In this document: piece by piece, positions 1,196 through 20,000 of the stretch
Layout of the letters: each line of letters starts with the position of its first letter
Numbering within the stretch: the stretch's first letter is position 1
IMG/VR virus record: IMGVR_UViG_3300042392_001228
Coordinates: 55,215 to 75,214 of that record
DNA from: an uncultured virus (IMG/VR IMGVR_UViG_3300042392_001228)
Taxonomy: Duplodnaviria; Heunggongvirae; Uroviricota; Caudoviricetes
Strand: one strand, 5' to 3'
DNA length: 20,000 bases
Position numbers and translations under genes: made by a program
The notes under the pieces: model-generated
Told to the model about the DNA's origin: nothing
Database searches by the model: none
What the model saw: the letters and a program-made list of their open reading frames with translations, nothing else

Positions 1196-2986
1196 TTAAT
1201 TAAAAAGGTCGTAGCCGGATCCACTTCGAAGACCCCGGCTGCGGCCACCTCGGAAAATACCCCTATCAGGTACCTCGGCAGACTGAGGATCAGGGTCGTT
1301 GAAGCCCATACTGCGGGGAGCTCTTCGGCCCCCGACCGAAACACTTCGCTCTTCGAAAAGCCCACCGTAAGAGTGACCATCCCGAAACATTGGTCTGCGT
1401 AGGGCACCAGCCCATTTTCGACTCTGAATGATCGAGTCTTGTATACCCCGGTCAACGGAGTCAATTTTGAGCGAGTAATAAGTTAGCGCCCATACCATGG
1501 CGTCAGTACTATCGTCGTGTCGAACGTACGGGAAAGACGTTAGTTCTTTTATGAAAGCATCGGTCCATAGGCCCCGCACCAGTATAACGCGGTGGTTTTC
1601 GAGTAAAGGGCAGACTGCCTGGAGGCGAGTCGTTTTTGACTTCAGCGGCCTCATTTCCTCGATAGGTATCTTAGCCTCTCGCTTCAGCATTTGAATGAGG
1701 GAGTGCCCTGATGCAGCTTTCTCAATGCATAGAACTTTTGCGCTGTACAAAGCGTAATGCTGCTTTACCGATTCAATTAAGTCGGGAAAACCCCACTTTC
1801 CTTTAACAATCTCACGAATGTATACAACGTCGGGGTTACGTGTGTTTACACCAGCGACGCATATTGCGCTCTCATCAGCTTTCTCTCGCTCGGAGAAAGC
1901 GCAGTCAACTCCAAACCATACAACGTCCAAGGGGGGGCAGTCTTTCTCCTCTATAACCTTAACCCAGCTACTCTTTACAATCTGCCCCTCAGCCGATACA
2001 GGAACCCCTTGGTAAAGAGCTGCGAACTTAAAGCTACCCATTATCTTTTTCTGGGACTCAAGCATCGGAACAGAGAAAGCGGGGTTGTCGGGCCAGTGGC
2101 TCTCTCCCATCTCTCTCCCCAAGGGGTCATTATCGGGGTCCTCACAGAGCCCTGCAATGTTTATCCACCTCCATCCGAAATCCCCGTCATCAGCTACCCA
2201 GTCTACTCCGTTCCCGTCTAGGTCTAGAAAACCGTCCCCGTCCATTAAGACCCCGTGAAGGTCTTTTTCGTGGAAGCGAGTCGCGATCACCATTTGGCAA
2301 AAGTGGTTGGTTCTTCGGGTAGACGCCTGCTCCTGCCACCATGACTCAAGGTTGTCTAGCGCCTGCTTCGAGTCCGATGATTTTAAAGGGTCGTCTATCA
2401 CCATTGCCCCCACGCCAGGGCTCTCCATGTCCGTTGTACCCGCTGTAAAGCCAGTTAGGACTCCACCCACAGACGTTGCAAGGATGTACCCCCCGCCAAT
2501 CATATCGTATTTCGAGTCCGGGCTGAACCCCATCCACTCGGGGAATATTCTTTTAAACTCCTTTGACTTCAGCATCTGGACAGTTTCCCTGTGGAACTTG
2601 AAAGACAGCGAAGCTCCGTAAGAAGCTATAACATGCTGTGTCTTTTGGTCCCTGCCCAGCAACCATGCCAAGAACATAGTCGCCAGCATCGACTTCCCTG
2701 AGCGAGGGGGGCAAGAAACGATTAGTCTCTTGTACCTCCTATTTGCCAGGTCCTCAAAGCCAGATCCTATAATCTCGTGAAACTCGGACACGTTAAGGTC
2801 GCCTGCCTTCATTATATCGCAGAAGGCAAGAAAGCATTCTCGAGCAGCCTGATAGCGGTACTCAGAAACCACCGAGCGCGGTGCCTCAAGAAGGACGAGC
2901 TCCCTTAAGCCCCTTTGGTAGTCTCGCCAAGACGAGTACTCGTCAAGTTGAGACACGTGCGTTATTACGGGTCGGTTATAGCTCAT
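1196..2986 (-). CDS. terL: Terminase large subunit (ATPase + RNase H-like nuclease) with an R/G-rich C-terminal extension
   Basis: 596 aa. Walker A PPRSGKS, Walker B MVIDDP, coupling motif ATR(F)H, LYQG, nuclease motifs GVDCA, IEKAASG and FP..HDDSTDA. Confidence 0.95.
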   Translation of the reverse strand: MSYNRPVITHVSQLDEYSSWRDYQRGLRELVLLEAPRSVVSEYRYQAARECFLAFCDIMKAGDLNVSEFHEIIGSGFEDLANRRYKRLIVSCPPRSGKSMLATMFLAWLLGRDQKTQHVIASYGASLSFKFHRETVQMLKSKEFKRIFPEWMGFSPDSKYDMIGGGYILATSVGGVLTGFTAGTTDMESPGVGAMVIDDPLKSSDSKQALDNLESWWQEQASTRRTNHFCQMVIATRFHEKDLHGVLMDGDGFLDLDGNGVDWVADDGDFGWRWINIAGLCEDPDNDPLGREMGESHWPDNPAFSVPMLESQKKIMGSFKFAALYQGVPVSAEGQIVKSSWVKVIEEKDCPPLDVVWFGVDCAFSEREKADESAICVAGVNTRNPDVVYIREIVKGKWGFPDLIESVKQHYALYSAKVLCIEKAASGHSLIQMLKREAKIPIEEMRPLKSKTTRLQAVCPLLENHRVILVRGLWTDAFIKELTSFPYVRHDDSTDAMVWALTYYSLKIDSVDRGIQDSIIQSRKWAGALRRPMFRDGHSYGGLFEERSVSVGGRRAPRSMGFNDPDPQSAEVPDRGIFRGGRSRGLRSGSGYDLFN

Positions 2987-3276
2987 TCTTTTTGACTTTT
3001 AGGCTTTAGCTTGTTTAGTAACTTTTCAACGGTCGGTCCGTACTCTTTGGCTAGATCTTGTTCCCCCTTACTCTCTGTTTCGGTCAAACTCACAATATCC
3101 GACACAATCTCGCGGTGCGCTTTCACAGCCGAGTTAAACACAGTCACAAGATCTCGAGTGCTGCACTCCTCCAAGTGGTCTTGAAGTAGCTCAAGAGCGT
3201 CTTCAGCAACCTGCAATGCTGCTGCGGCAAGGGTCTCTTTCTGCCTCAGGATTTTGTCGTTCGAAGTTGTTGTCAT
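2983..3276 (-). CDS. Small helical protein, possible terminase small subunit
   Basis: ATG at 3276 overlaps the upstream stop (ATGA), and its own stop overlaps the terL ATG (ATGA). 97 aa, helical/coiled-coil-like with a basic C-terminus. TerS call is positional only. Confidence 0.5.
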   Translation of the reverse strand: MTTTSNDKILRQKETLAAAALQVAEDALELLQDHLEECSTRDLVTVFNSAVKAHREIVSDIVSLTETESKGEQDLAKEYGPTVEKLLNKLKPKSQKE

Positions 3277-3425
3277 AGTGTTTTTCTGCATCGTGAGCAC
3301 CCCGTATTTGAAGTGGGATAACTCCGGAAGTTTTGCAATTGTTTAAGGATGGCCTGCGCCAAGGCCGAATTGTTGGACTTAACAGCAACGTCATACTGTG
3401 CCCAGAGCTGTGCGGGAGTTGCCAT
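3273..3425 (-). CDS. Small hypothetical protein (50 aa, C-terminal CxxC)
   Basis: ATG at 3425 lies 2 nt after the stop of 3428..4651, and its stop is coupled to the next gene. Sequence MATPAQLWAQY...GCSRCRKTL. Confidence 0.6.
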   Translation of the reverse strand: MATPAQLWAQYDVAVKSNNSALAQAILKQLQNFRSYPTSNTGCSRCRKTL

Positions 3426-3427
3426 AC

Positions 3428-4651
3428 TTAACAGAGACTCGGAGGAGTTGGTCCGCCTTCGCAAGGAATGCAGCCGAGCTTCCACAAGGAATTAATCGAC
3501 GCAAGCTCGAAGGAATCTTGTATCAACCAACCTTTACCCTGCGGAGACTGGGCTACAAAGTAGAACCGTCCCTGCGGTGTTTGAATAAACGTGTCGGGTT
3601 TCACCCCGACGAGTGTTCCGCCCATCAAAGTTTGCGTCTTGCCGTTCGGATCTAGGGGGTCTGAGTACAGGGTTCGGTTCGCCCCTCTCACAATTGCGAA
3701 CTCCCCGTAGGTGAGTCCCGACGACCACGACGCATCCTTCACACTTAGCGGGTCTATTCCCCCCTTGGCTGCGCCAGAAACCGTATTCCTCCAAAGATCC
3801 ACAGCGTAACGAGCAAGCTTTTTCCCGGAGTTAACGTAGAAAACTTCCTTTATGGGCTGCTTTGTTGTGGCGTTCCAAATTGTTACAACCAAGCGACCGT
3901 CCGCCGTGAAATTCTTATTACTTAGCAAGTAGATCGGCTGACTTAAAGGATCTTCGAGGAATACTTCACTCGGGCTGCGAACATAGACCCAATCCCCTGA
4001 CTGCGTGAGTTCTTCACTCCACTGCACTCCGAGTGCATCTGTGAGTGCGGCATCTAGGGGGTTCGTCTCAGGGTACCATGGCACATAAATACACCCCGTT
4101 GCTTCATCGAGAACACCGGCTAAGGGTAAAGAAGTCAGGACATTTCGAGTGGGGAAAATTTGGCGGCAGTCACCACGTTGAACACAGGGGTCGAGTGCGA
4201 TATACGGCAGGGTTTCCTCGATAGTTACGGACCAGTTTTGAGTGTAGGTGTACTGGGACTCCGGGCTTAAGCCTGTGAACTGGGACGTAGAGCATCGAAA
4301 AGGTTCCAAAACTTGCACGTAAGCACCCGAAGGGGCACTCCCCGACAGTGTGATTTTTGCGCCCATGAGGAGTTGCGTGGCAAAGTCGTGTCCGGAACTC
4401 GTCAGGTAGTTTTGGCACGAAAAGTTAAGCTCAAAATTGAGAGTGTCTTCGTATATGAAGGGTACTCGGTTCTTAACATTGCTTGTTGAACTTTCGTATC
4501 GGACAACGATGTTGTTGGTCTGAGTTACAACGCCTTCGTTCTCCACTGCGTCAGCCAAACGCAAAACATTAACTCCAATTGGTATGAGGGGGGATGCAAT
4601 AAGAGAGTCGCAGAGGAATTGCTCTATTTTCGTTATTGTATTCAGTTCCAT
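3428..4651 (-). CDS. Virion protein; N-terminal ~145 aa possibly Mu gp37-like tail terminator/completion domain, plus an extra C-terminal domain
   Basis: 407-aa ORF directly after the gp36-like gene. N-terminal pattern (ITKIEQFLCDSL...IVVRYESS...LNFELNF...ATQLLMGAKITLSG...YTQNWSVT) resembles tail-terminator proteins. Confidence 0.5.
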   Translation of the reverse strand: MELNTITKIEQFLCDSLIASPLIPIGVNVLRLADAVENEGVVTQTNNIVVRYESSTSNVKNRVPFIYEDTLNFELNFSCQNYLTSSGHDFATQLLMGAKITLSGSAPSGAYVQVLEPFRCSTSQFTGLSPESQYTYTQNWSVTIEETLPYIALDPCVQRGDCRQIFPTRNVLTSLPLAGVLDEATGCIYVPWYPETNPLDAALTDALGVQWSEELTQSGDWVYVRSPSEVFLEDPLSQPIYLLSNKNFTADGRLVVTIWNATTKQPIKEVFYVNSGKKLARYAVDLWRNTVSGAAKGGIDPLSVKDASWSSGLTYGEFAIVRGANRTLYSDPLDPNGKTQTLMGGTLVGVKPDTFIQTPQGRFYFVAQSPQGKGWLIQDSFELASINSLWKLGCIPCEGGPTPPSLC

Positions 4652-4663
4652 TTAGGTTAGGAC

Positions 4664-5743
4664 TTAAGGGTAGATCGTATCAGAGCCGTTAACGCGATAG
4701 CCGCCTGCGTCGTTCGGCTCTGTAATTTGTGGAGTCCCACCTAAGTCTTCGTAGTTTCGTGCTGAGATCCAGTTAGTTTCAGAGTTGTTTTGCCCCGTTG
4801 CCCCGAAACCAGCACGAAAGTCCGGAGCCTGATCCCCCGCCATGTCTGTATTCCACCCTCCGAAACCTTTTCCCGAAACCCCGTTGTACCGCTGCGGGAC
4901 ACGCCAGGAGCGCATGATTCCTGCCTTGGTGTCAATAGCTGAGTCACCGTGGCCCGCACGAACCGAAGTCATTTCTCGTTCAGCGTCGAGTTGTTTTAGT
5001 GCTTCGGTGTAATCCTTGAAAACATCCTCTCTTCGCCGAACATTATCCAGGTAGTATCGGGCTATGATAAGTGCTGTTCGGCGGCGGTTGCTCGTAATTA
5101 GGACCTTTCCCGCTTTCCCTGACTGCTCAATGTATGAGTCTATGAGAGCGTTTGCATCCTCGATTGCCATTCGCATCTTGGCAACATTCACCGAGTTTGC
5201 GCTCGCGTCGTCAATGTTTGTAAGTTGTATGGCTTCCTTGAGTCCGTACGCGATAATGAAGTCGTCGGGCGACGCACTTCGTGGGTCGGACCTGTTTGGC
5301 GTTAAAACACCTGAGCGATCTTGATGCGGATAGCCGTAACCGCCAATAGTCTGCCCAAGGTTGGAACCCTTGCGAGAGCTTTCCGTTTGTTCGCTCGGTG
5401 TGAGCGTGTTTCGGACCGAAACTCGGTAAAAGCCTCGTACTGCGTTTCTTTTCTTTACAACATCACTAGCTGTGGAGGGAACTGGCCCCCTCATGCAAGA
5501 GGCTAAGGCGACGGGGGGCTCATAGGAAACAAATACCTCGTCCCACGCAGACAAGCAGCTGTCTAGCCCAAGGGATACCATTGTGTCCGAGGAGTACACG
5601 AATGTCTCTACTCCGTACTGACCGTAGTTCACAGTGAAGGAGCTTATGGGAACACTGACCCGAGTGTCAAGTGGGCTATCGAAGTACAGAACAACTGTAC
5701 TCGGCGCTGAAAGTATGGCCTCCTTTATCTGCGGTACTGACAT
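4664..5743 (-). CDS. Head-tail adaptor (Mu gp36/DUF1320-like) fused to an N-terminal Ig-like (SwmB-like) domain
   Basis: Central segment ASPDDFIIAYGLKEAIQLTN...AIEDANALIDSYI...IARYYL...KDYTEALKQL matches the DUF1320 pattern. N-terminal VVLYFDSPLD...SSFTVN...VSLGLD...VFVSYEPP is Ig-like. AAGGA SD upstream. Confidence 0.75.
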   Translation of the reverse strand: MSVPQIKEAILSAPSTVVLYFDSPLDTRVSVPISSFTVNYGQYGVETFVYSSDTMVSLGLDSCLSAWDEVFVSYEPPVALASCMRGPVPSTASDVVKKRNAVRGFYRVSVRNTLTPSEQTESSRKGSNLGQTIGGYGYPHQDRSGVLTPNRSDPRSASPDDFIIAYGLKEAIQLTNIDDASANSVNVAKMRMAIEDANALIDSYIEQSGKAGKVLITSNRRRTALIIARYYLDNVRRREDVFKDYTEALKQLDAEREMTSVRAGHGDSAIDTKAGIMRSWRVPQRYNGVSGKGFGGWNTDMAGDQAPDFRAGFGATGQNNSETNWISARNYEDLGGTPQITEPNDAGGYRVNGSDTIYP

Positions 5744-5762
5744 TCGGCTCTTTCCTTGTACA

Positions 5763-5774
5763 AGGTTTTACCCT
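5763..5774 (-). promoter_or_regulatory. Intergenic GGGTAAAA motif, candidate late promoter
   Basis: AGGGTAAAACCT about 20 nt upstream of the ATG at 5743. The same core occurs in three other spacers. Confidence 0.5.
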
Positions 5775-5811
5775 GCTGCCTAAGGAAAGTCGGAGCCCCA
5801 CGAAAGCTACC

Positions 5812-6459
5812 TCACATCAGTTTGTCCCTACCCATTGACATTTTGTAAGGTTTGCTGCCATGCCTTGTATCTCCCCCCTCTAAGCGTATACTATTTCCGG
5901 ACCGTGTCGCCGACCAATGGGTGCCACTTTCGTCCTCAAATTTGAACCTTTCCCCCTCCTTTAACTTTCCAAGGGCAGTTTGGTGCTCGGGGTGTAGAAC
6001 AGCCTTGAACTCAGACCCCTTACTGACCACTACCCTGTCACCCTGCTTTCTTACGGAAGTTTCCGAACCTTCGGCTGCGAGTCTTTTGAGAGTGGCTTGG
6101 GCAGCCATGTCTCTTTCTACCTTGGTTCGCCTGGCGGGAGAAGTCGCCTTTACCGGTTTAGCTTCTTCAGTTCCTTTTCTGCACTGCCCCGCTGTTCCGT
6201 ACGCTTCACCGGACGGTTTTACGCAGCGTGTGAATTCGTACGAATTAATCAGGGTATTTACAGCCTCTTCAATGAATGGGTATTTGTTCCCGTAATTTTC
6301 AGAGAAGGAGAAACCTTCGGATGCTAACGCATCCGCTTCATTGCGGAGTTCTAAAGCCTCTCCAAGGTTACCTTTTAGTGCTTCAGAAAGGGCTTCGAGG
6401 TAACAGTGGTCGAGTTTATTCATGTCTGATGTTGTGAAAATTTCAGGGAGTGTTTTCAC
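5812..6459 (-). CDS. Hypothetical protein
   Basis: 215-aa ORF filling the gap in the minus-strand gene cluster and preceded by the GGGTAAAA motif. Contains CVKPSGEAYGTAGQCRKG. Confidence 0.75.
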   Translation of the reverse strand: MKTLPEIFTTSDMNKLDHCYLEALSEALKGNLGEALELRNEADALASEGFSFSENYGNKYPFIEEAVNTLINSYEFTRCVKPSGEAYGTAGQCRKGTEEAKPVKATSPARRTKVERDMAAQATLKRLAAEGSETSVRKQGDRVVVSKGSEFKAVLHPEHQTALGKLKEGERFKFEDESGTHWSATRSGNSIRLEGGDTRHGSKPYKMSMGRDKLM

Positions 6460-6470
6460 CCCGTCTTTTT

Positions 6471-6480
6471 ATTTTACCCT
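6471..6480 (-). promoter_or_regulatory. Intergenic GGGTAAAA motif, candidate late promoter
   Basis: AGGGTAAAAT upstream of the GTG at 6459. Confidence 0.45.
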
Positions 6481-6501
6481 TTGCGGACCAGGTCTAGGTA
6501 G

Positions 6502-6912
6502 TCAACGCAGCAGGAAATCTTTCGGATCGTTTGACACGGGAAAGAGATTCTCGGACACCCAGAACGAGTAGACATCCTTATGGACTCGTACCGAGTACCC
6601 TCGAGCTGCGGAGTACAGACAATTTGCAAGGAACTGAAAGGCCAGTCGAAGAGGCCACTCATCTCTCCAGTTGACTTCCCAACTGTCAATCGTGAGCAAC
6701 TTACCGCTCACTGTGTAGTCTATTCGGGATACTATGCTCCCTCCCCTTAAACCTGGTGCGGGGTAATCGAAAGTTTGAGCAACGGACTCGTAGGGCTCCC
6801 CATCATACTTTCCTAGGACATACCGCAGCTCACTTGCCCCGTCCTGAAAGTACAAGAAGTCCTGAAAGATAAATCCCCCTTGGCGATAGACAGAAGGACG
6901 ACGTACTGCCAT
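6502..6912 (-). CDS. Hypothetical protein (136 aa)
   Basis: Likely start is the ATG at 6912 (MAVRRPSVYRQ), in a TAATG overlap with the upstream stop. The track's longer start (7038) overlaps the upstream gene. Confidence 0.75.
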   Translation of the reverse strand: MAVRRPSVYRQGGFIFQDFLYFQDGASELRYVLGKYDGEPYESVAQTFDYPAPGLRGGSIVSRIDYTVSGKLLTIDSWEVNWRDEWPLRLAFQFLANCLYSAARGYSVRVHKDVYSFWVSENLFPVSNDPKDFLLR

Positions 6913-7283
6913 TAGACCCTCACCAATGCATGAAAAGTTCCATTTCTCCCCACAATTACCCGGTCTCGGTACTCCTTTCCGTCCACAATGAGTCGGTCCG
7001 TGTTGGTTATCGCCTCGACTCTCAGGTCCTGTTCGCAAGTTACCGGCTCAAGAAAAGTTGTGGGTACCGCAACAAAGAATCTTTCCTGACTCAGGAAGCT
7101 TTTCCCGATGGAGAAAGAAACGTGGGCACTTACAGAGTTGGCCGCGTAAATAGAGTCATACACGCAAAGGTTCTCAACGACTCCGAGGGATTTGTAGAAC
7201 ACTGGCGCTAAAGGGTTTGTAGCACTCTGGCCGAACCCTGGAGAGTTGACAAAGCCTGGGTCGTAATCCTCGGTGAAAGTCAT
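6912..7283 (-). CDS. Hypothetical protein, probably baseplate/spike associated
   Basis: 123 aa, ATGA-coupled to the spike gene and TAATG-coupled to the next gene. Confidence 0.7.
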   Translation of the reverse strand: MTFTEDYDPGFVNSPGFGQSATNPLAPVFYKSLGVVENLCVYDSIYAANSVSAHVSFSIGKSFLSQERFFVAVPTTFLEPVTCEQDLRVEAITNTDRLIVDGKEYRDRVIVGRNGTFHALVRV

Positions 7284-8476
7284 TTGAATGGGTTTGGTAA
7301 GGAGGGTAGCTTAGAGAAAACAGTTTTTATTGTTGCCGCAGGGTTCTGAAGCGTCGAGATGACAAACTTGGTTGCCCCAGGAACATAGGAAGGCAGCGAC
7401 TTCTCTGCTGCTTTTTTCACAAAGTCGGTGGGGTCTGCTATGACTTTTCTAAGAACTTCTGAGAAGTTTAGAACTTTTTGTGCTTGCTGAATCGCTGTCT
7501 TCGTAAAATTCGACCCTGGGACACTCTCGACTGCAGCAAGAATTTCAGGGTTGTAGGTGGTTATGAACGACCCGGTAATATTATCGATAAACCCAGAATT
7601 TCGTGCAAAGCTAAGGGCAGTGTCTTGGCTGAACAAAGGCCCTTCCACAAACTTGAACGCTTGTATCGTGCTCATCGGGGGCGGTGCCCACGCTGCAGCA
7701 GACCCCCAAGGATTACCGGCAGGGGCAGTAGAGTACCCGGTTCGCCCCTCTTTTTTCATTTCCTGATGACTTGTAACAAAGACGTGGTCGTATGTTGCAG
7801 CCATTTGTCCAGGGCTGAGACGATTTCCAGCAGAGTCAACCTGCGATGTAACATCGTTTCCGCCTGCGTGCCCGTGCGCCAAATCTGCGTGCCTTACCCA
7901 TATGTACTGTCCGTCTCTCTTCAGACAAATACACACCCAATCTGAGTTCATTGGACCATTTTCTTCAACAACAGTGCAGCCGTGGTTCTCCTTGCATGCC
8001 GGGGGCAGACCGCCAGCTTCGTATATCGGCAGCCGAGTCATTGTGCTGTTGCTCGGAATCTGTAGAGCTTGCTGAGAGCCGTCGGTTAAATTCTGAGGGT
8101 CGTACAGTACGTCTTGCAAAACTGCATAGTGGTACTCCCCGTTGCTCAGAGAAATATTCACTCTCTTTCCTTCGAGGGACTTCGGCTGCTTTCCCTTGAA
8201 AGCCGGGGAAACATCGAGCCAGTGTGACAAGTTGCTTGACTCTCCTGGCCTCGGTAGAGAAAACTCTCCAGCACCTTCGACTGACGGAATGTCCTGAGGG
8301 TTCATGGCGTCGAACAGAACCTTGACTCTCCCTAAGTCTTCAGGGTCTTCAACACTAATTATGGTCCCACGAACAGTTCCCCTGGGTGACCCGGTGTACC
8401 TCGCGTTGGCTTCGATGGCTTTCGCCATCTCGGCCTGTTGTCGAATCCATGGAATGTTTCTCAGGCTTTGGGCCAT
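7280..8476 (-). CDS. Baseplate central spike protein (GpV/gp5/VgrG-type OB-fold)
   Basis: N-terminal RGTIISVEDPEDLGRVKVLF is the typical OB-fold signature. Internal HADLAHGH resembles the HxH metal-binding apex motif. Confidence 0.75.
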   Translation of the reverse strand: MAQSLRNIPWIRQQAEMAKAIEANARYTGSPRGTVRGTIISVEDPEDLGRVKVLFDAMNPQDIPSVEGAGEFSLPRPGESSNLSHWLDVSPAFKGKQPKSLEGKRVNISLSNGEYHYAVLQDVLYDPQNLTDGSQQALQIPSNSTMTRLPIYEAGGLPPACKENHGCTVVEENGPMNSDWVCICLKRDGQYIWVRHADLAHGHAGGNDVTSQVDSAGNRLSPGQMAATYDHVFVTSHQEMKKEGRTGYSTAPAGNPWGSAAAWAPPPMSTIQAFKFVEGPLFSQDTALSFARNSGFIDNITGSFITTYNPEILAAVESVPGSNFTKTAIQQAQKVLNFSEVLRKVIADPTDFVKKAAEKSLPSYVPGATKFVISTLQNPAATIKTVFSKLPSLPNPFK

Positions 8477-15476: not shown

Positions 15477-15502
15477 AAAAAAGCCCCGGTTAGGGGGCTT
15501 TT
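15477..15502 (-). terminator. Rho-independent terminator ending the capsid-tube transcript
   Basis: Minus strand AAAAGCCCC-CTAACC-GGGGC-TTTTTT, 11 nt after the tube stop codon. Confidence 0.85.
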
Positions 15503-15513
15503 CGAGTTGAGAA

Positions 15514-15957
15514 TCAGGTTCGGTCCCAAGAATTCACGGTTAGCTGAATCTCAATTTCCTGAACATTGCCGCTTTCACGGTCAACATCGGCGGTATTAAG
15601 AGACATGAACTGACATCCGTAGCAAGTGTATTGGCCGCCAGCGGGTGCTGATCCGTTTCCAACACAGTCTTTCGGAGTGACTGTAACTGTGATTTCTCTG
15701 CAATTATACTGCAACCAGTAAATTTCCAACTGCTTGAAGATCGTGGGATCGTACGGAGCAGAAAGGGAGATGTTGTCTACCTTTTTGGGGCCTACAACTT
15801 TGTAAATACGGTTACCAGTACCATTGGCGTAGTCACTGCTACTTGAGGAATCCTTGATTCCGCTGAATTTTGTAAACGTGGCGATTAGTGTGGGTCCGTC
15901 AGGAGCTACGAAGCTAACTTCGTACTGAGACTTTGTAATCGGTCTGAGAATTGCCAT
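15514..15957 (-). CDS. Tail tube protein (contractile-tail/T4 gp19-like fold)
   Basis: 147 aa with a strong AGGAGG SD. Pattern FTKFSGI...VVGPKKVDNISLSAPYD...ITVTV...YTCYGC...ADVDRESGNVQEIEIQLTV is typical of tube proteins. Confidence 0.8.
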   Translation of the reverse strand: MAILRPITKSQYEVSFVAPDGPTLIATFTKFSGIKDSSSSSDYANGTGNRIYKVVGPKKVDNISLSAPYDPTIFKQLEIYWLQYNCREITVTVTPKDCVGNGSAPAGGQYTCYGCQFMSLNTADVDRESGNVQEIEIQLTVNSWDRT

Positions 15958-15985
15958 TGGGTCACCTCCTTAGTACCTTCCCTTA

Positions 15986-18900
15986 TCAGGATAGGATGTT
16001 GGTGATCATAGCGCCAGAACCGATAAGACCAGTTGCGCCGAGGCCAACTAGGTTAACCACACGTTCAATTGTGATTTCAGCACGAACAACGCGGCGTTCA
16101 CGAATGTAGTATTCGGGACGGACGGCGGGGGTGCCTGTGAGCTGATCATTTGTGTTATCATAAGGGCTCTTTATCCCTTATTTCTTCACATTTCTGTGAA
16201 GATCAGACTATATCTTCTTCCCTTTAACTTTGAGGGTTTAGGGAGTGGGGCACTCTTGTCAGCTTCATCACTGTTCTAGTGGTATGCTGTTAGTCGTTGA
16301 ACGTTCGTTTTCTCCCGAAAACGCTTCGCTGCTGATTACCATAGTTTCAAACTCTCGTTTGAAGCCGTAGGCTTCCCAGCAATTCACCCCATTGACTCGC
16401 GGATCAGGCGAGTAATTTGATGTTACCATCAAACCACGCATTCAGCTCGTTTAAAAGAAACGATGTTGTTAGCATACGTGTAAGAGAAGGCAGGAGTCGC
16501 AGCATTCGCACCACCAGCAGGCATGATGGAATCAGAAGGACCGTTAGGGCTGTAGAACAGAAGGATACCGTTAGCTGGGAATACCGGCTGTAGGGTTCCA
16601 TCTTGCGCTAAGTAACGACCTTCGGCAACACGTAGGCCACGCTCAAGACCGAAGTAGCGAGCAATGACGTCAGTGTCGACGCTGTCTGCAGATGTGTACT
16701 TGATACGATCAAGGATCTTCTCGTTGGTCAGCAAGAGGTCAAACACGGCAGTACCGACGACTGCGGAGTTTGGACGGATACCGATTTGGTTGGCGACTGC
16801 ACGCTTGAGGGTGAGGATGTCTTCAATTGGGTTAGAAGTAGCACCAGACCAGGCGGCGTCTCCAGCAACGGAGCCGTAAGCTGTCTTGAAGTTTGTCCAG
16901 GTTGTGAAACCGAGTCCGGTCTGGGAACCTGCGGTTCCGTTATAGGGCTCGTAAGGGTTGTAAGTCGCGGTGACGGAAACAGCTTGAGCAACGGTGTACT
17001 CGTAGCTGTTCATCAATCTGGACATTGCATTCCTGGTTTCGATTGCGCGAAGCAATTTGTTAACTCAGCGGCTCTTTATCCGCTGATTCATTACCTTGTT
17101 GTCGGCAATGTTCAGACTATATCATTGTTCTGTGAGGTGAACTTAGTGTTCACTTTACAAAACATCGGGCGCTCGTGTCAGCTTCATCACTGTTCTAGTG
17201 GTATGCTGTTAGTCGTTGAACCTTGCCCCTATCCCTAGGGGCCTTGGCTGCTGATTTCCCACACGGGGGTTCCAGCAATTCACCCAATTTATAGTGGACC
17301 TACGCTGCGATCGAAATTGCACGTAAAAAATAATCCACCTGCGCGGGCCCTTCCCCGGCATTTTCAATTACCTCTTCAGGCAATTCCCAGGCGACCACTT
17401 CCTGCTCTAGAGCATAAGGCTCAGAGTCGTAGCGGCTTTGGACGTATGGGATGTTAGTTCCGTAAGCACGACGGAAATCGTTTATAGCAAACTGCTCCTT
17501 CCCAAATCTGAGAATTCTCCCAGCGCGGGTAGGGGTGTCCACAACCGGTGCGATAAACACTTGTTACCGTGAAGGCTCTTTATCCTTCACTTCTTCGCAT
17601 TTCTGCAAAGATCAGACTATATCATCATCTTCCTTAAACTTTTTAACAACGGTTCGCAGAGACTGCCAAGTATTACCTAGACCGGTTAGCCGGAACAGCT
17701 TCCTGGCCCCACACTTCTCGTTAGAAACCCAAACTTCATGCAATAAACCTAAATTAGACCAAACTTCGACATTAGCCCGAGGGTTTTTAATGCCTGTTCG
17801 ATCCCGGTCGGGTCTATTAGCGGCTTGCAAGGCGAATTGTATAGTTGGTTTACTAAGTGCCTTATCTTTAAGTTTCTGTCTTGATTCTGCACTCCACACT
17901 CTGTTCTTGCATAATTCTGCACGAGCGGATCTTTCTTTATCAGACATTGGAACTTTCCTGGGTCTGGCCTTTCCTTTATTGGATTTGCCAATTTTAAACC
18001 TAGTTTCGTCCGAGTGTTTATGATGAGCTAAGGTTTCGTACACTCTGGAGTTTTTCGAAGACTCCTTGAAAGAGTTTATAGCTTTGCCTAACCTCTTTAT
18101 GGAAGAGAAAGCTAGAGCCAGCAGGCAGTGAGACAGGTAGTGCTCTCTGTAGGTGAGTTTGATTAGGTTACCATCTTCATTTCCACCCTTCATGCACTTG
18201 GGCACTATATGGTGAATGTGGTGTCCGGGTTCTCGTGTCAAACTCCTTGGGGGTCTGGAGAGGATAAACTTTATGTACCGTTGGTAGTGTAAGGGAGAGT
18301 CGGGCGCTCGTGGAAAGATTATTTCAGGGTTGATCACTTTCTAGTCGTTGAACCTTTTTACTTAACACTACTATAGTTAGTAGAGACCCTAAGTAAACTT
18401 GGCTGCTGATTGCCTGTTTTGCAAAAGCAAAACTAAGGTATCCCAGCAATTCACCCGATTTTCAATCAGAGTCACCTCTGAGTGGAACCCTATCGATTCG
18501 CAATGTTGGTGGACAATATGTTCTCTCTGCTTACACAGAGTGTCGGACTATCTTATCGTTTCTTTACAAAACGTTGGGCGCTCTAGCCTGTTATTAAGGG
18601 AACTAAATCCCCCAGGTAGTCTCTGAACCTTCTTCCGGTGTACCGGAAGCTTGGCTGCGGATTGACCCTTTTGCTAAGCAAAAGTAGGCTTTCCCGCAGT
18701 TCACCCAATTTCTTTTCCCCTACACCAAAGGGAGCATGAAGCCTTGTGCGAGTGTTGTGAGGATTGGCCAGTGTTATCGCAAAAGCTCTTTATCTTTTGC
18801 TTCTGTATGTTTCCATACAGGTCAGACTATATCATCATCTTTGCTTGAGCAAAGAGTCGGGCGCTCGTGGATTGTTCGCCTGTTCTAGGCTACTTAATCT

Positions 18901-19963
18901 AGTCGTTGAACCTTGCCCCTATCCCTAGGGGCCTTGGCTGCTGATTGCCTATTTTGCAAAAGCAAAACTAAGGTGTCCCAGCAATTCACCCGATTTTCAA
19001 CTTTGTTTGGAAGTTGGGACCCTAATTAATCCACACCTGCATAAGTCTGTTGTAGCAACTTGTTATCGTAAAGGCTCTTTATCCTTTACTTCTCTACATT
19101 TCTGTAAAGTTCAGACTATATCATCATCTCGGATTACGGCCCAGCTGCCACCCCTCGCCGGGGTGTTTTTCTGACCGAGTTCTAATCACTTCTGTACCTT
19201 CGATTTTCCAGTACCATCTTTGTTTTGATATCGCACAGGAAATTTTTCGCTTTGACTCATCGCTATGGGTAGAGTTTTTACGAGAGCACTTGTCAATCAT
19301 TGTGGGATTATTTTTCCACACTTCTTTCATAGTGCTACTTATCTTACCTCTGTGCTCCTTGTCTTTGGTTCTACCTTTTAGGGAGCTGGAAATTTTATGA
19401 CCCCAAGAAACTTCCCTTCTTCTGTTAGACTCAGCTATCCGTTTTGACTTTTCCTCGTTTTTCTGACAATACTCCAGAGACTTGTAGAACTTGGACCCTT
19501 TGGATCCGTTCATTAAGGAGGCGCATTCAGCGAGTTTTATATTAGTGGGGAAAGCTTTATGAAGTACTAAATGAAGAACTGTATGTTCTCTTCTTGTAGT
19601 TAAAACTACGTTTTCGGGGTTGTAAGTTCCACCCATACATTTAGGTAGAATTCTGTGCTTTTCTAAACCATCCCTCTTGCATTTTACGCGAGATAAGGAT
19701 CTTATGCTAAAGCACATTCTTAGGTATCTTCTTAAGAAGTGGTTGTTACGAGAGTCGGGCGCTCGTGGAAAGATTATTTCAGGGTTGATCACTTTCTAGT
19801 CGTTGAACCTTTTTACTTAACACTACTATAGTTAGTAGAGACCCTAAGTAAACTTGGCTGCTGATTGCCTTGCGCCTTGTAATACAAAGCCGTCAGGTGT
19901 CCCAGCAATTCACCCGATTTTCAATCAGAGTCACCTCTGAGTGGAACCTTTATGATTCATCAT
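15986..19963 (-). CDS. Major capsid protein (HK97-fold, phage capsid E-like), 351 aa, spliced from 7 exons: 19963-19955, 19055-19029, 18767-18729, 18513-18496, 17557-17333, 17052-16476, 16146-15986
   Basis: Joined exons total 1056 nt and give an open frame: MMN|LQQTYAGVD|PILTTLAQGFMLP|STNIAN|FIAPVVDTPTRAGRILRFGKEQF...GPAQVD|LRAIETRNAMSRL...PAFSYT(Y)|QLTGTPAVRPEYY...AMITNILS*. VDPILT.LA.G...IA....P.V......G.I..FGKE.F and WS...SNPIEDI...I...PN are typical capsid motifs. AAGGA SD at 19974-19978. Confidence 0.88.
16147..16475 (-). ncRNA. Group I intron 6 of the capsid gene (329 nt, ORF-less, phase 1)
   Basis: P GGTGAATTGCTGGGAA, Q AATCAGCAGC, R GTTCAACGACTA, S AAGATATAGTCT. P1 exon CACGU pairs with GCGUG (U.G). 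P10 GAGCUGAAU pairs with AUCAGCUC. Ends in G. Confidence 0.92.
17053..17332 (-). ncRNA. Group I intron 5 (280 nt, ORF-less, phase 0)
   Basis: P/Q/R/S elements present. P1 GUGGAU/GUCCAC, extended P10 to exon CUUCGCGCAAUCGAAA, terminal G. Confidence 0.92.
17612..18337 (-). CDS. Intron-encoded HNH homing endonuclease with NUMOD3-like motifs
   Basis: HHIHHIVPKCMKGGNEDGNLIKLTYREHYLSH (HNH); KHSDETRFKIG and WSAESRQKL (NUMOD3-like). GTG start is uncertain. Confidence 0.88.
   Translation of the reverse strand: MINPEIIFPRAPDSPLHYQRYIKFILSRPPRSLTREPGHHIHHIVPKCMKGGNEDGNLIKLTYREHYLSHCLLALAFSSIKRLGKAINSFKESSKNSRVYETLAHHKHSDETRFKIGKSNKGKARPRKVPMSDKERSARAELCKNRVWSAESRQKLKDKALSKPTIQFALQAANRPDRDRTGIKNPRANVEVWSNLGLLHEVWVSNEKCGARKLFRLTGLGNTWQSLRTVVKKFKEDDDIV
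18295..18415. repeat. 121-nt exact direct repeat (copy 2 at 19750..19870): shared ribozyme core of introns 4 and 1
   Basis: Base-by-base comparison at offset 1455. A further 49-nt identical block lies at 18441..18489 and 19900..19948. Confidence 0.93.
18514..18728 (-). ncRNA. Group I intron 3 (215 nt, ORF-less, divergent type)
   Basis: P GGTGAACTGCGGGAA, Q AATCCGCAGC, R GTTCAGAGACTA, S TAAGATAGTCC. P1 UCCCU/GGGGA, P10 UUGGUG with exon CACCAA, terminal G. Confidence 0.9.
18768..19028 (-). ncRNA. Group I intron 2 (261 nt, ORF-less)
   Basis: P/Q/R/S present. P1 GGAU/GUCC, short P8 hairpin TCTTTGCTCAAGCAAAGA, terminal G before CCAATC. Confidence 0.9.
19056..19954 (-). mobile_element. Group I intron 1 (899 nt) after codon 3 of the capsid gene, carrying an HNH homing endonuclease in L8
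   Basis: P/Q/R at ~19795-19915, S at ~19113-19125. P1 GAAU/GUUC. 3' end ...GATAACAAGTTG; an alternative G 3 nt earlier would add one Leu. Confidence 0.9.
19124..19792 (-). CDS. Intron-encoded HNH homing endonuclease with NUMOD3-like motifs
   Basis: EKHRILPKCMGGTYNPENVVLTTRREHTVLH (HNH); HSDESKRKIS (NUMOD3-like); C-terminal PGEGWQLGR. GTG start is uncertain. Confidence 0.85.
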   Translation of the reverse strand: MINPEIIFPRAPDSRNNHFLRRYLRMCFSIRSLSRVKCKRDGLEKHRILPKCMGGTYNPENVVLTTRREHTVLHLVLHKAFPTNIKLAECASLMNGSKGSKFYKSLEYCQKNEEKSKRIAESNRRREVSWGHKISSSLKGRTKDKEHRGKISSTMKEVWKNNPTMIDKCSRKNSTHSDESKRKISCAISKQRWYWKIEGTEVIRTRSEKHPGEGWQLGRNPR

Positions 19964-20000
19964 AATAGATGTTTCCTTGTGTGTAAAGTTGACTTCAAAG

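Follow-up and report, generated by a model that had tools for sequence, protein, structure and literature searches.

The window considered here comprises the last 20 kb (20,000 nucleotides [nt]) of a linear IMG/VR contig of 75,214 nt, IMGVR_UViG_3300042392_001228, which is estimated to be 33% complete and which originates from an uncultured freshwater phage whose complete relatives possess genomes of approximately 280 kb. Its minus strand harbors a major capsid gene of 351 codons, which extends from an ATG at position 19963 to a TGA at position 15986 and which is interrupted six times, four of the interruptions being located within the first 31 codons and two more after nt 318 and 895 of the coding sequence (CDS). 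Each of the six interrupting stretches matches the Rfam group I intron model RF00028 over model positions 1 to 253 with scores of 53.1 to 98.2 bits, above the gathering score of 50 (E values of 4e-11 to 1e-24 for the first four introns in the scan of the window), while the joined exons form a 1056-nt CDS with a single terminal stop, as determined by a frame check. The interrupted gene is, by homology, a phage major capsid gene of the lambda gpE-type family: exon 6 matches Pfam Phage_cap_E (PF03864; E value 9.2e-11, 41.8 bits versus a cut-off of 22.9), and the nearest isolate, Synechococcus phage S-CBWM1, specifies its major head protein through an uninterrupted CDS of 341 codons. The joined product of the window (351 amino acids [aa]) is colinear with this protein (341 aa) from end to end, with no insertion or deletion across residues 1 to 31.

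Exon borders were located by string search and frame check, together with homolog alignment and the rule that an exon ends in U and an intron in G. The U at position -1 and the terminal intron G (omega G) are present in all six introns, whose lengths are, in order, 899, 261, 215, 938, 280, and 329 nt. The corresponding RF00028 envelopes cover, on the minus strand, positions 19968 to 19092 (53.1 bits), 19052 to 18803 (98.2 bits), 18749 to 18524 (66.0 bits), 18508 to 17593 (71.9 bits), 17379 to 17089 (59.1 bits), and 16468 to 16184 (81.2 bits); that of intron 5 begins 47 nt too early, and the true border was set by the S-CBWM1 homolog. Across the 75-kb contig, all eight RF00028 matches fall inside the capsid gene, and a permissive Rfam scan of positions 15500 to 20000 (E value of at most 1) retrieved no other family. 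In each Rfam alignment (to the general RF00028 model), a 30- to 35-nt insertion follows GGUUCAACGACUA and precedes the P3' strand; phage introns of the IA2 type carry extra helices, P7.1 and P7.2, between P7 and P3'. Every intron contains one or more in-frame stops, and the unspliced reading amounts to MMN followed by HKGSTQR and a stop, i.e., a peptide of 10 residues. Both this truncated product and the four micro-exons of 9, 27, 39, and 18 nt had been proposed in a first-pass annotation of this DNA, and both are borne out, the peptide by translation and the micro-exons, at the same places, by string search and frame check. The parts of the gene are listed below in the order of transcription; P1 denotes the predicted pairing of an intron guide with the end of the upstream exon, and P10 that of the first intron bases with the start of the downstream exon.

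19955..19963, minus strand: exon 1, 9 nt, ATGATGAAT, encoding MMN, with which S-CBWM1 also starts; last 4 nt, GAAU, in P1 of intron 1
19056..19954, minus strand: intron 1, group I, 899 nt; RF00028, 53.1 bits; guide GUUC at nt 8 to 11; stop after HKGSTQR
19029..19055, minus strand: exon 2, 27 nt, encoding LQQTYAGVD; last 4 nt, GGAU, in P1 of intron 2
18768..19028, minus strand: intron 2, group I, 261 nt; RF00028, 98.2 bits; first in-frame codon TAA
18729..18767, minus strand: exon 3, 39 nt, encoding PILTTLAQGFMLP; last 5 nt, UCCCU, in P1 of intron 3; 12 of 13 residues as in S-CBWM1
18514..18728, minus strand: intron 3, group I, 215 nt; RF00028, 66.0 bits; nt 1 to 6, UUGGUG, as P10 strand
18496..18513, minus strand: exon 4, 18 nt, encoding STNIAN; nt 3 to 8, CACCAA, as P10 partner of intron 3; nt 15 to 18, GAAU, in P1 of intron 4
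17558..18495, minus strand: intron 4, group I, 938 nt; RF00028, 71.9 bits; nt 1 to 5, CGAUA, pairing with nt 3 to 7 of exon 5 (P10)
17333..17557, minus strand: exon 5, 225 nt; 78.7% identity to S-CBWM1 residues 32 to 106
17053..17332, minus strand: intron 5, group I, 280 nt; RF00028, 59.1 bits; border set by the homolog and the U/G rule
16476..17052, minus strand: exon 6, 577 nt; Pfam Phage_cap_E, E value 9.2e-11
16147..16475, minus strand: intron 6, group I, 329 nt, phase 1; RF00028, 81.2 bits; 7-base-pair P10
15986..16146, minus strand: exon 7, 161 nt including the TGA; 78.8% identity to S-CBWM1 residues 290 to 341

The start codon lies where the first-pass annotation had placed it. The joined product begins MMN/LQQTYAGVD/PILTTLAQGFMLP/STNIAN/FIAPVV (slashes marking exon joints), while the head protein of S-CBWM1 begins MMNLNETFVGVEPILTTLAQGYMLPSNNISNFIAPVV, which likewise opens with MMN and includes VEPILTTLAQG; the same N terminus is, thus, present in an intron-less homolog, and neither a later start nor homologs devoid of this N terminus, which that annotation had named as grounds for abandoning its proposal, were encountered. 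In a relative which is 100% identical over the gene (L006), an open reading frame (ORF) of 157 aa ends approximately 170 nt upstream of the capsid ATG, and the intervening spacer leads to a putative ribosome-binding motif and the ATG:

19974..19978, minus strand: Shine-Dalgarno-like AAGGA, 10 nt upstream of the ATG, with the same leader in L006

Pairing strands at the splice sites

A U which pairs with a guide G at the 5' splice site was found in all six introns. The P1 exon and guide strands are GAAU/GUUC for intron 1, GGAU/GUCC for intron 2, UCCCU/GGGGA for intron 3, and GAAU/GUUC for intron 4, while P1 of intron 5 is a helix of 7 base pairs on GGUGGAU and that of intron 6 comprises 5 base pairs on CACGU. 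The sites after CDS nt 9 and 93 consequently have the target GAAU in common, and those after nt 36 and 318 both present GGAU to a guide GUCC. Among relatives, P1 covaries at site 281 (GAGGU/GCCUC versus GAAGU/GCUUC) and occurs in three versions at site 303. The leader of the site-93 intron similarly covaries with the start of the downstream exon (CGAUA/UAUCG and CAAUAA/UUAUUG), according to our reading of the listed sequences.

With regard to P10, nt 1 to 6 of intron 3 (UUGGUG) are perfectly complementary to nt 3 to 8 of exon 4 (CACCAA), giving 6 base pairs, whereas P10 of intron 4 comprises 5 base pairs (CGAUA with nt 3 to 7 of exon 5) and that of intron 6 comprises 7. Shuffled exons matched the observed P10 length in 6.0% (intron 3), 6.7% (intron 4), and 0.5% (intron 6) of 2000 trials; because 6% of the shuffles reach 6 base pairs, the P10 of intron 3 is, when taken alone, only suggestive. 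The first-pass annotation had stated that the 18-nt exon supplies both CACCAA to P10 of intron 3 and GAAU to P1 of intron 4, and both strands were indeed located, at nt 3 to 8 and nt 15 to 18, respectively, without overlap. It had, in addition, argued that the order of splicing may be constrained, a suggestion which received no support, as these two strands do not overlap and the pairing, therefore, forces no order.

Exon joining in lake RNA

Sampled words of the gene were present at 89 to 97% in 14 lake or freshwater DNA runs and at 63 to 73% in six lake metatranscriptomes, and joints were sought in the Logan contigs of four runs, three of RNA and one of DNA. Exon joining is observed in this environmental RNA. 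The joints 19054>19954 (skipping 899 nt), 18767>19029 (261 nt), and 17052>17333 (280 nt) occurred in all three RNA runs, as did 16144>16474, which skips 329 nt and includes two ambiguous letters; the DNA run (n = 1) yielded none. Joining of exons 3, 4, and 5 was evident in one RNA run as 17557>18728 with 17 letters of exon 4 between the two sides, and in the two others as a loose end of 29 letters composed of the start of exon 5 and exon 4. No exon-skipping joint (exon 1 to exon 5) was present among the RNA joints listed. Unspliced pieces were also found in the RNA contigs, one of which spans positions 19029 to 19948 (exon 2 and intron 1), and two RNA runs contained contigs with exon 4, intron 3, and part of exon 3 whose loose end at 18496 is the start of exon 5.

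The weight of each joint depends on how many near-identical genomes carry the intron in question. Intron occupancy was counted over loci sharing at least 98.5% identity with the window, where the site was covered, and was as follows by CDS site.

Site 9: 8 of 9 loci (L069 without the intron)
Site 36: 11 of 11 loci
Site 75: 11 of 11 loci
Site 93: 10 of 11 loci
Site 318: 12 of 14 loci
Site 895: 9 of 15 loci

Since introns 2 and 3 are carried by all 11 loci, the RNA joints at these positions are not explained by intron-less DNA and represent clean evidence of splicing, while the joint at intron 1 is nearly clean evidence. With respect to the remaining introns, eight positions differ between the RNA contigs and the window, and these positions place the strain of the RNA runs with L010. 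L010, a contig of 2,756 nt, possesses introns 1 to 3 and none at sites 93, 318, and 895. An exact 36-mer spanning its junction of exons 4 and 5 was found in one further record only (L074; 1,102 nt), which keeps the 3' part of intron 1 as well as introns 2 and 3 and which displays the same variants as the RNA runs. These two records may stem from a rare DNA genotype, or they may be transcripts that were assembled in a partly spliced state. Long contigs without intron 5 or without intron 6 also exist. There was almost no RNA cover inside intron 4 in runs X16 and X17, and little in intron 5; depth of contigs ranks nothing, and the low cover of intron 4 may only reflect a strain with another (ORF-less) or no intron 4. 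Lastly, three odd RNA joints (17125>19795, 17611>18822, and 19126>16249) connect stretches that resemble each other in different introns, some with 17 to 33 foreign letters between them, and are probably attributable to other intron variants or to assembly cross-links at repeated intron segments.

Intron polymorphism, endonuclease genes, and mosaic ancestry

A search of IMG/VR with exon 6 retrieved 72 loci, to which the joined CDS was aligned by means of a custom spliced aligner (only introns with a donor U and an acceptor G allowed) that recovers the six introns of the window exactly. L028 was left out of the resulting catalogue as unalignable, and calls at site 9 in L002, L004, L005, and L059 and at 883/895 in L062 were considered alignment artefacts (contig ends, low intron cost). 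The introns are polymorphic among these relatives: a full-length gene without any intron is present in 16 of the 72 loci, and the number per capsid gene ranges from 0 to 13 over approximately 16 sites overall, located after CDS nt 9, 36, 41, 75, 93, 150, 160, 192, 273, 281, 303, 318, 356, ~889, 895, and 927. The site-9 intron is the sole intron in four distant relatives (L036, L042, L045, and L049). Thirteen of the 16 sites are crowded into CDS nt 1 to 356 (binomial P of 1.4e-4), and none was found between nt 357 and ~880. Insertion into the most conserved DNA was considered as a basis for site choice and rejected, given that identity within 12 nt on either side of the 16 sites is 0.787 versus 0.788 overall and that 51% of randomly drawn sets reach the same level.

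The highest densities were observed in L030, L032, L061, and L062, each with 11 to 13 introns in the same 1056-nt gene, an 8-nt exon, GAAGAGGT, being present in this group and a 6-nt exon, ACACGT, in L062. L030 carries 11 introns, for which 11 Rfam matches were obtained independently, and its exons of 9, 32, 52, 57, 10, 32, 81, 8, 22, 15, 38, and 700 nt join into a clean frame. L032 (positions 2117 to 7897) carries 13, with 12 Rfam matches above threshold, and two of its complete introns are separated by an exon of only 5 nt, CCCAT (positions 2691 to 2695 in our reading), across which D-P-I-L is read. This locus belongs to G001, a complete genome of 279,339 nt with terminal repeats, in which 14 of 17 RF00028 matches lie in the capsid gene and 3 in one other gene. 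In the latter (G001:C1:20378-21454; L076 109-3056, minus strand), the three matches are situated between ORF pieces of 310 and 327 aa, the first of which contains, by eye, a P-loop-like GKDPGLGKS; a Pfam search with both pieces returned no family. As a further side observation, the site-93 intron of L030 (positions 3292 to 3568; the same in L032, L061, and L039) has a normal P1 (GAAU/GUUC) and a covarying P10, while its in-frame 3' splice site follows A (...gttttgtatatta/TTCATAGCA) rather than G, the sole in-frame alternative which is legal by the U/G rule being without P1.

Introns 1 and 4 each contain an ORF whose product is predicted to be a homing endonuclease:

19124..19792, minus strand: ORF of intron 1, 222 aa, homing endonuclease; phrog_655 (homing endonuclease), E value 8.4e-22
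17612..18337, minus strand: ORF of intron 4, 241 aa, homing endonuclease; phrog_655, E value 1.3e-22; phrog_12434 (HNH endonuclease), E value 1.2e-6

The ORF of intron 4 additionally matches Pfam NUMOD3 (21.3 bits versus a cut-off of 20.4), while that of intron 1 has no Pfam match at an E value of at most 0.01. The two products share 39% identity over 127 aa, their C-terminal halves being divergent, and are evidently paralogs. Both GTG starts are located in a ribozyme segment common to introns 1 and 4 (19792 to 19751 and 18337 to 18296, minus strand), and because both ORFs begin in this shared segment, their first 14 residues (MINPEIIFPRAPDS) are identical. Introns 1, 4, 5, and 6 were each found both with and without an inserted ORF among genomes with exons at least 99% identical, which indicates that these endonuclease genes were, in all likelihood, recently gained or lost. 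The alternate forms are as follows.

Site 9, L009 and L014: 266 nt
Site 93, L013 and L017: 263 nt
Site 318, L009, L013, and L014: 967 nt
Site 895, L008: 914 nt

The intron copies are mosaics. Introns 1 and 4 agree at 187/194 nt over nt 7 to 205 and, in a separate comparison of the 5' half, at 190/199, nt 7 to 201 of intron 4 being 96% identical to intron 1, and local blocks are shared by introns 2 and 4 (66/68 nt), 2 and 5 (82/89), and 5 and 6 (126/151). Intron 1 matches a site-9 intron that lacks an ORF, from a genome whose exons are identical, at 149/172, i.e., below its match to intron 4, and introns 1 and 4 are each 87 to 93% identical to the same-site ORF-less intron of the same exon lineage. 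The last 75 nt, at the 3' end, stay site-specific (74/75). Two core types were recognized at sites 9 and 93, each of which is found at both sites. This pattern shows exchange between sites with a short target in common, the route being either recombination between copies or insertion directed by the guide. Outside the capsid gene, intron 2 shares ~80% identity over ~60% of its length with Bacillus phage DNA-polymerase introns, and introns of Bacillus, Enterococcus, Streptococcus, and Staphylococcus phages, some of them annotated with I-BasI, have a similar ribozyme core. In a megablast search against isolated phages, the single match covered 67 nt of intron sequence.

Interpretation of the intron array

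It is proposed, with a probability of roughly 0.85, that this capsid gene has been colonized by mobile group I introns of the phage type, six in the window and four of these in the first 31 codons. Each intron would constitute its own ribozyme, in which a guide of 4 to 7 nt near the 5' end pairs with the end of the upstream exon to form P1, closed by a final U.G pair; in introns 3, 4, and 6 the first intron bases would, in addition, form P10 with the beginning of the next exon. Micro-exons of 9 to 39 nt would suffice to accommodate such short, nonoverlapping strands, and because these strands do not overlap, each intron should be able to splice independently, all six together restoring the frame of 351 codons. 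Splicing presumably proceeds without proteins, and a regulatory role is presumably absent. The predicted HNH-type homing endonucleases of introns 1 and 4, if active, would presumably copy their introns into intron-less alleles during co-infection, while ribozyme parts would be swapped between copies, notably at the GAAU sites (after CDS nt 9 and 93). As the introns are polymorphic, being present or absent among relatives, and as introns 1 and 4 bear endonuclease genes, they are best regarded as mobile elements.

Several observations weigh against this proposal. The contig of the window stops 37 nt upstream of the ATG, the leader beyond this point being known only from identical relatives. P1 of introns 1, 2, and 4 involves just 4 exon base pairs, and a complement search against shuffled exons yielded no P10 above chance for introns 1, 2, and 5. 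Logan contigs cannot reveal rates or rare forms, and the RNA joints at introns 4 to 6, while compatible with splicing, do not prove it, because contigs without these introns exist and the RNA strain is L010-like. L069, which is nearly identical to the window (99%), is devoid of intron 1; it differs from the window at nt 3 of exon 2, a difference not listed for the RNA contigs. As regards the endonucleases, no Pfam HNH family was detected at an E value of at most 0.01 in either intron ORF, and a sequence search returned no PDB relative for that of intron 4.

A bolder version of events, which we regard as tentative and rather unlikely, is that the capsid gene serves as a breeding ground of one group I intron family, with seeding akin to reverse splicing at guide matches of 4 to 7 nt and with a slower 5' array which delays the capsid. 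If true, copies would spread within the gene by guide match and not by endonuclease homing, leading to as many as 13 introns and exons of 5 nt in 1 kb.

A regulatory gate appears less probable still. The first-pass annotation had suggested that intron 1 could act as an on/off switch for capsid translation, and a broader form of this idea is that intron 1 or the 5' array was recruited to delay or switch translation, with splicing in a fixed order. The 10-residue peptide from unspliced RNA is in keeping with such a role, as is the position of P1 of intron 1 at nt +6 to +20 of the mRNA, within the footprint of an initiating ribosome, where initiation should conflict with P1 formation. The four distant relatives which have the site-9 intron alone could be read in the same manner. 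RNA contigs which join exon 5 to exon 4 while retaining intron 3, together with L010 and L074, which keep introns 1 to 3 without intron 4 (and, in L010, without introns 5 and 6), would indicate a slower 5' array if the latter two records are RNA-derived, although they may equally represent a rare DNA genotype. There is also a precedent in the splicing-controlled ribosome-binding site of a c-di-GMP-dependent group I ribozyme (PMC3984707). In ribozymes of the c-di-GMP type, alternative 5' splice sites create or abolish the ribosome-binding site. Here, however, the Shine-Dalgarno motif precedes exon 1, so that splicing does not alter it, and no ligand-binding aptamer or other sensor RNA family adjoins intron 1 in the Rfam scan of positions 15500 to 20000. 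Occlusion of the Shine-Dalgarno motif or AUG was rejected as a gating mechanism, since splicing leaves their predicted accessibility unchanged (unspliced versus spliced leader, 0.49 versus 0.55 and 0.37 versus 0.34, respectively). Intron 1 is, moreover, dispensable in the near-identical L069 and missing from many relatives, 16 of the 72 loci being full-length without introns, and P10 of intron 3 does not overlap P1 of intron 4. Such presence and absence fits mobile elements and not a built-in switch, and we found no evidence of a dedicated gate for capsid translation or of an obligatory splicing order, while a kinetic effect through slow splicing of the 5' array is possible.

That the window instead holds a decaying copy, with the joined RNA stemming from co-occurring intron-less strains and a functional capsid gene elsewhere, is highly improbable: intron-less alleles are common in the wider clade, the contig is an estimated 33% of its genome, and the site-93 intron of the L030 lineage is without a terminal G at its in-frame 3' splice site, but the joined frame is intact, the protein is 100% conserved among many intron-bearing loci, the complete 279-kb G001 has a 13-intron gene (no search for a second capsid gene was made there), introns 2 and 3 are present in 11 of 11 near-identical loci and yet RNA joints occur there at a likeness of at least 95%, by our count exon 2 of the more distant, intron-poor lineages has 4 differences in 27 nt, and the covariation of P1 shows selection for splicing.

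The gene presents ordinary group I introns at a new extreme of density and is among the most intron-dense bacterial-virus genes seen. A comparable density with very short exons is known from fungal mitochondrial cox1, in which group I introns number a dozen or more and mini-exons occur. That gene resides in an organelle, is not subject to coupled transcription and translation on phage timescales, and needs maturases and nuclear factors, whereas the gene described here belongs to a lytic-type bacterial virus and requires very high expression. Among phages, orf142 of Staphylococcus phage Twort contains three group I introns, and T4 carries introns in td, nrdB, and sunY. The introns of the window resemble these in the U.G pair at the 5' splice site, the terminal G, early in-frame stops, and endonuclease ORFs in peripheral loops; to our knowledge, the Twort and T4 genes have at most three introns each, no micro-exon arrays, and no intron right after the third codon. 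A further parallel is provided by the DNA-polymerase introns of Bacillus phages, which have an I-BasI-type HNH endonuclease: intron 2 is ~80% identical to them over ~60% of its length, and the intron ORFs of the window belong to the same PHROG homing-endonuclease family as phage HNH enzymes. Differences concern the host gene, the number per gene, and the endonuclease targets. The structure of the Twort ribozyme and translation coupling in T4 are mentioned in PMC3984707.

The closest parallel is found in crAss-like phage of the Zeta group, another metagenomic phage whose major capsid gene is broken by several group I introns; this gene occurs in five fragments, with endonuclease domains in some introns (Yutin et al. 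2021, PMC7886860). The same paper describes the intron density of crAss-like phages, at up to 14 introns per genome, as unprecedented. In contrast to the four interruptions reported there, six are present here in a gene of 1056 nt and 13 in relatives, with exons of 5 to 39 nt, exact splice sites, and RNA joints; lineage and habitat also differ, the present phage being from lake water and related to a Synechococcus phage. Jug jumbo gut phages average 18.5 group I introns per genome; essential genes are affected, and terL is divided into two to three pieces (PMC12880540). These phages spread their introns over many genes, whereas G001 has 14 of 17 matches in one gene. In a literature search that did not extend to supplements and subscription journals, we encountered no phage gene split into more than five pieces or by six to thirteen introns, and no phage group I introns separated by micro-exons.

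Because coupled translation disturbs ribozyme folding, it is believed to restrain group I introns in the protein genes of bacteria, and in-frame intron stops have been described as halting ribosomes ahead of the ribozyme (PMC3984707). Against this background, the most highly expressed late gene tolerates six introns (13 in relatives), one of them three codons past the start, and exons as short as 5 to 9 nt; as environmental RNA shows joined exons, the capsid product appears to be made despite the introns. The array, therefore, offers a natural system in which to ask how self-splicing and ribosomes coexist on one RNA and whether group I introns reach new sites by guide recognition, with ~16 sites with matched guides and GAAU sites that exchange cores. 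Such genes are also invisible to ORF-based annotation, which would overlook the capsid marker of a widespread lineage of lake phages or report it in fragments. Downstream of the capsid gene, on the same strand, Pfam matches identify Baseplate_J, Mu Gp36, and large terminase genes, as well as a T4 gp19-like tube protein with a weak match below the cut-off.

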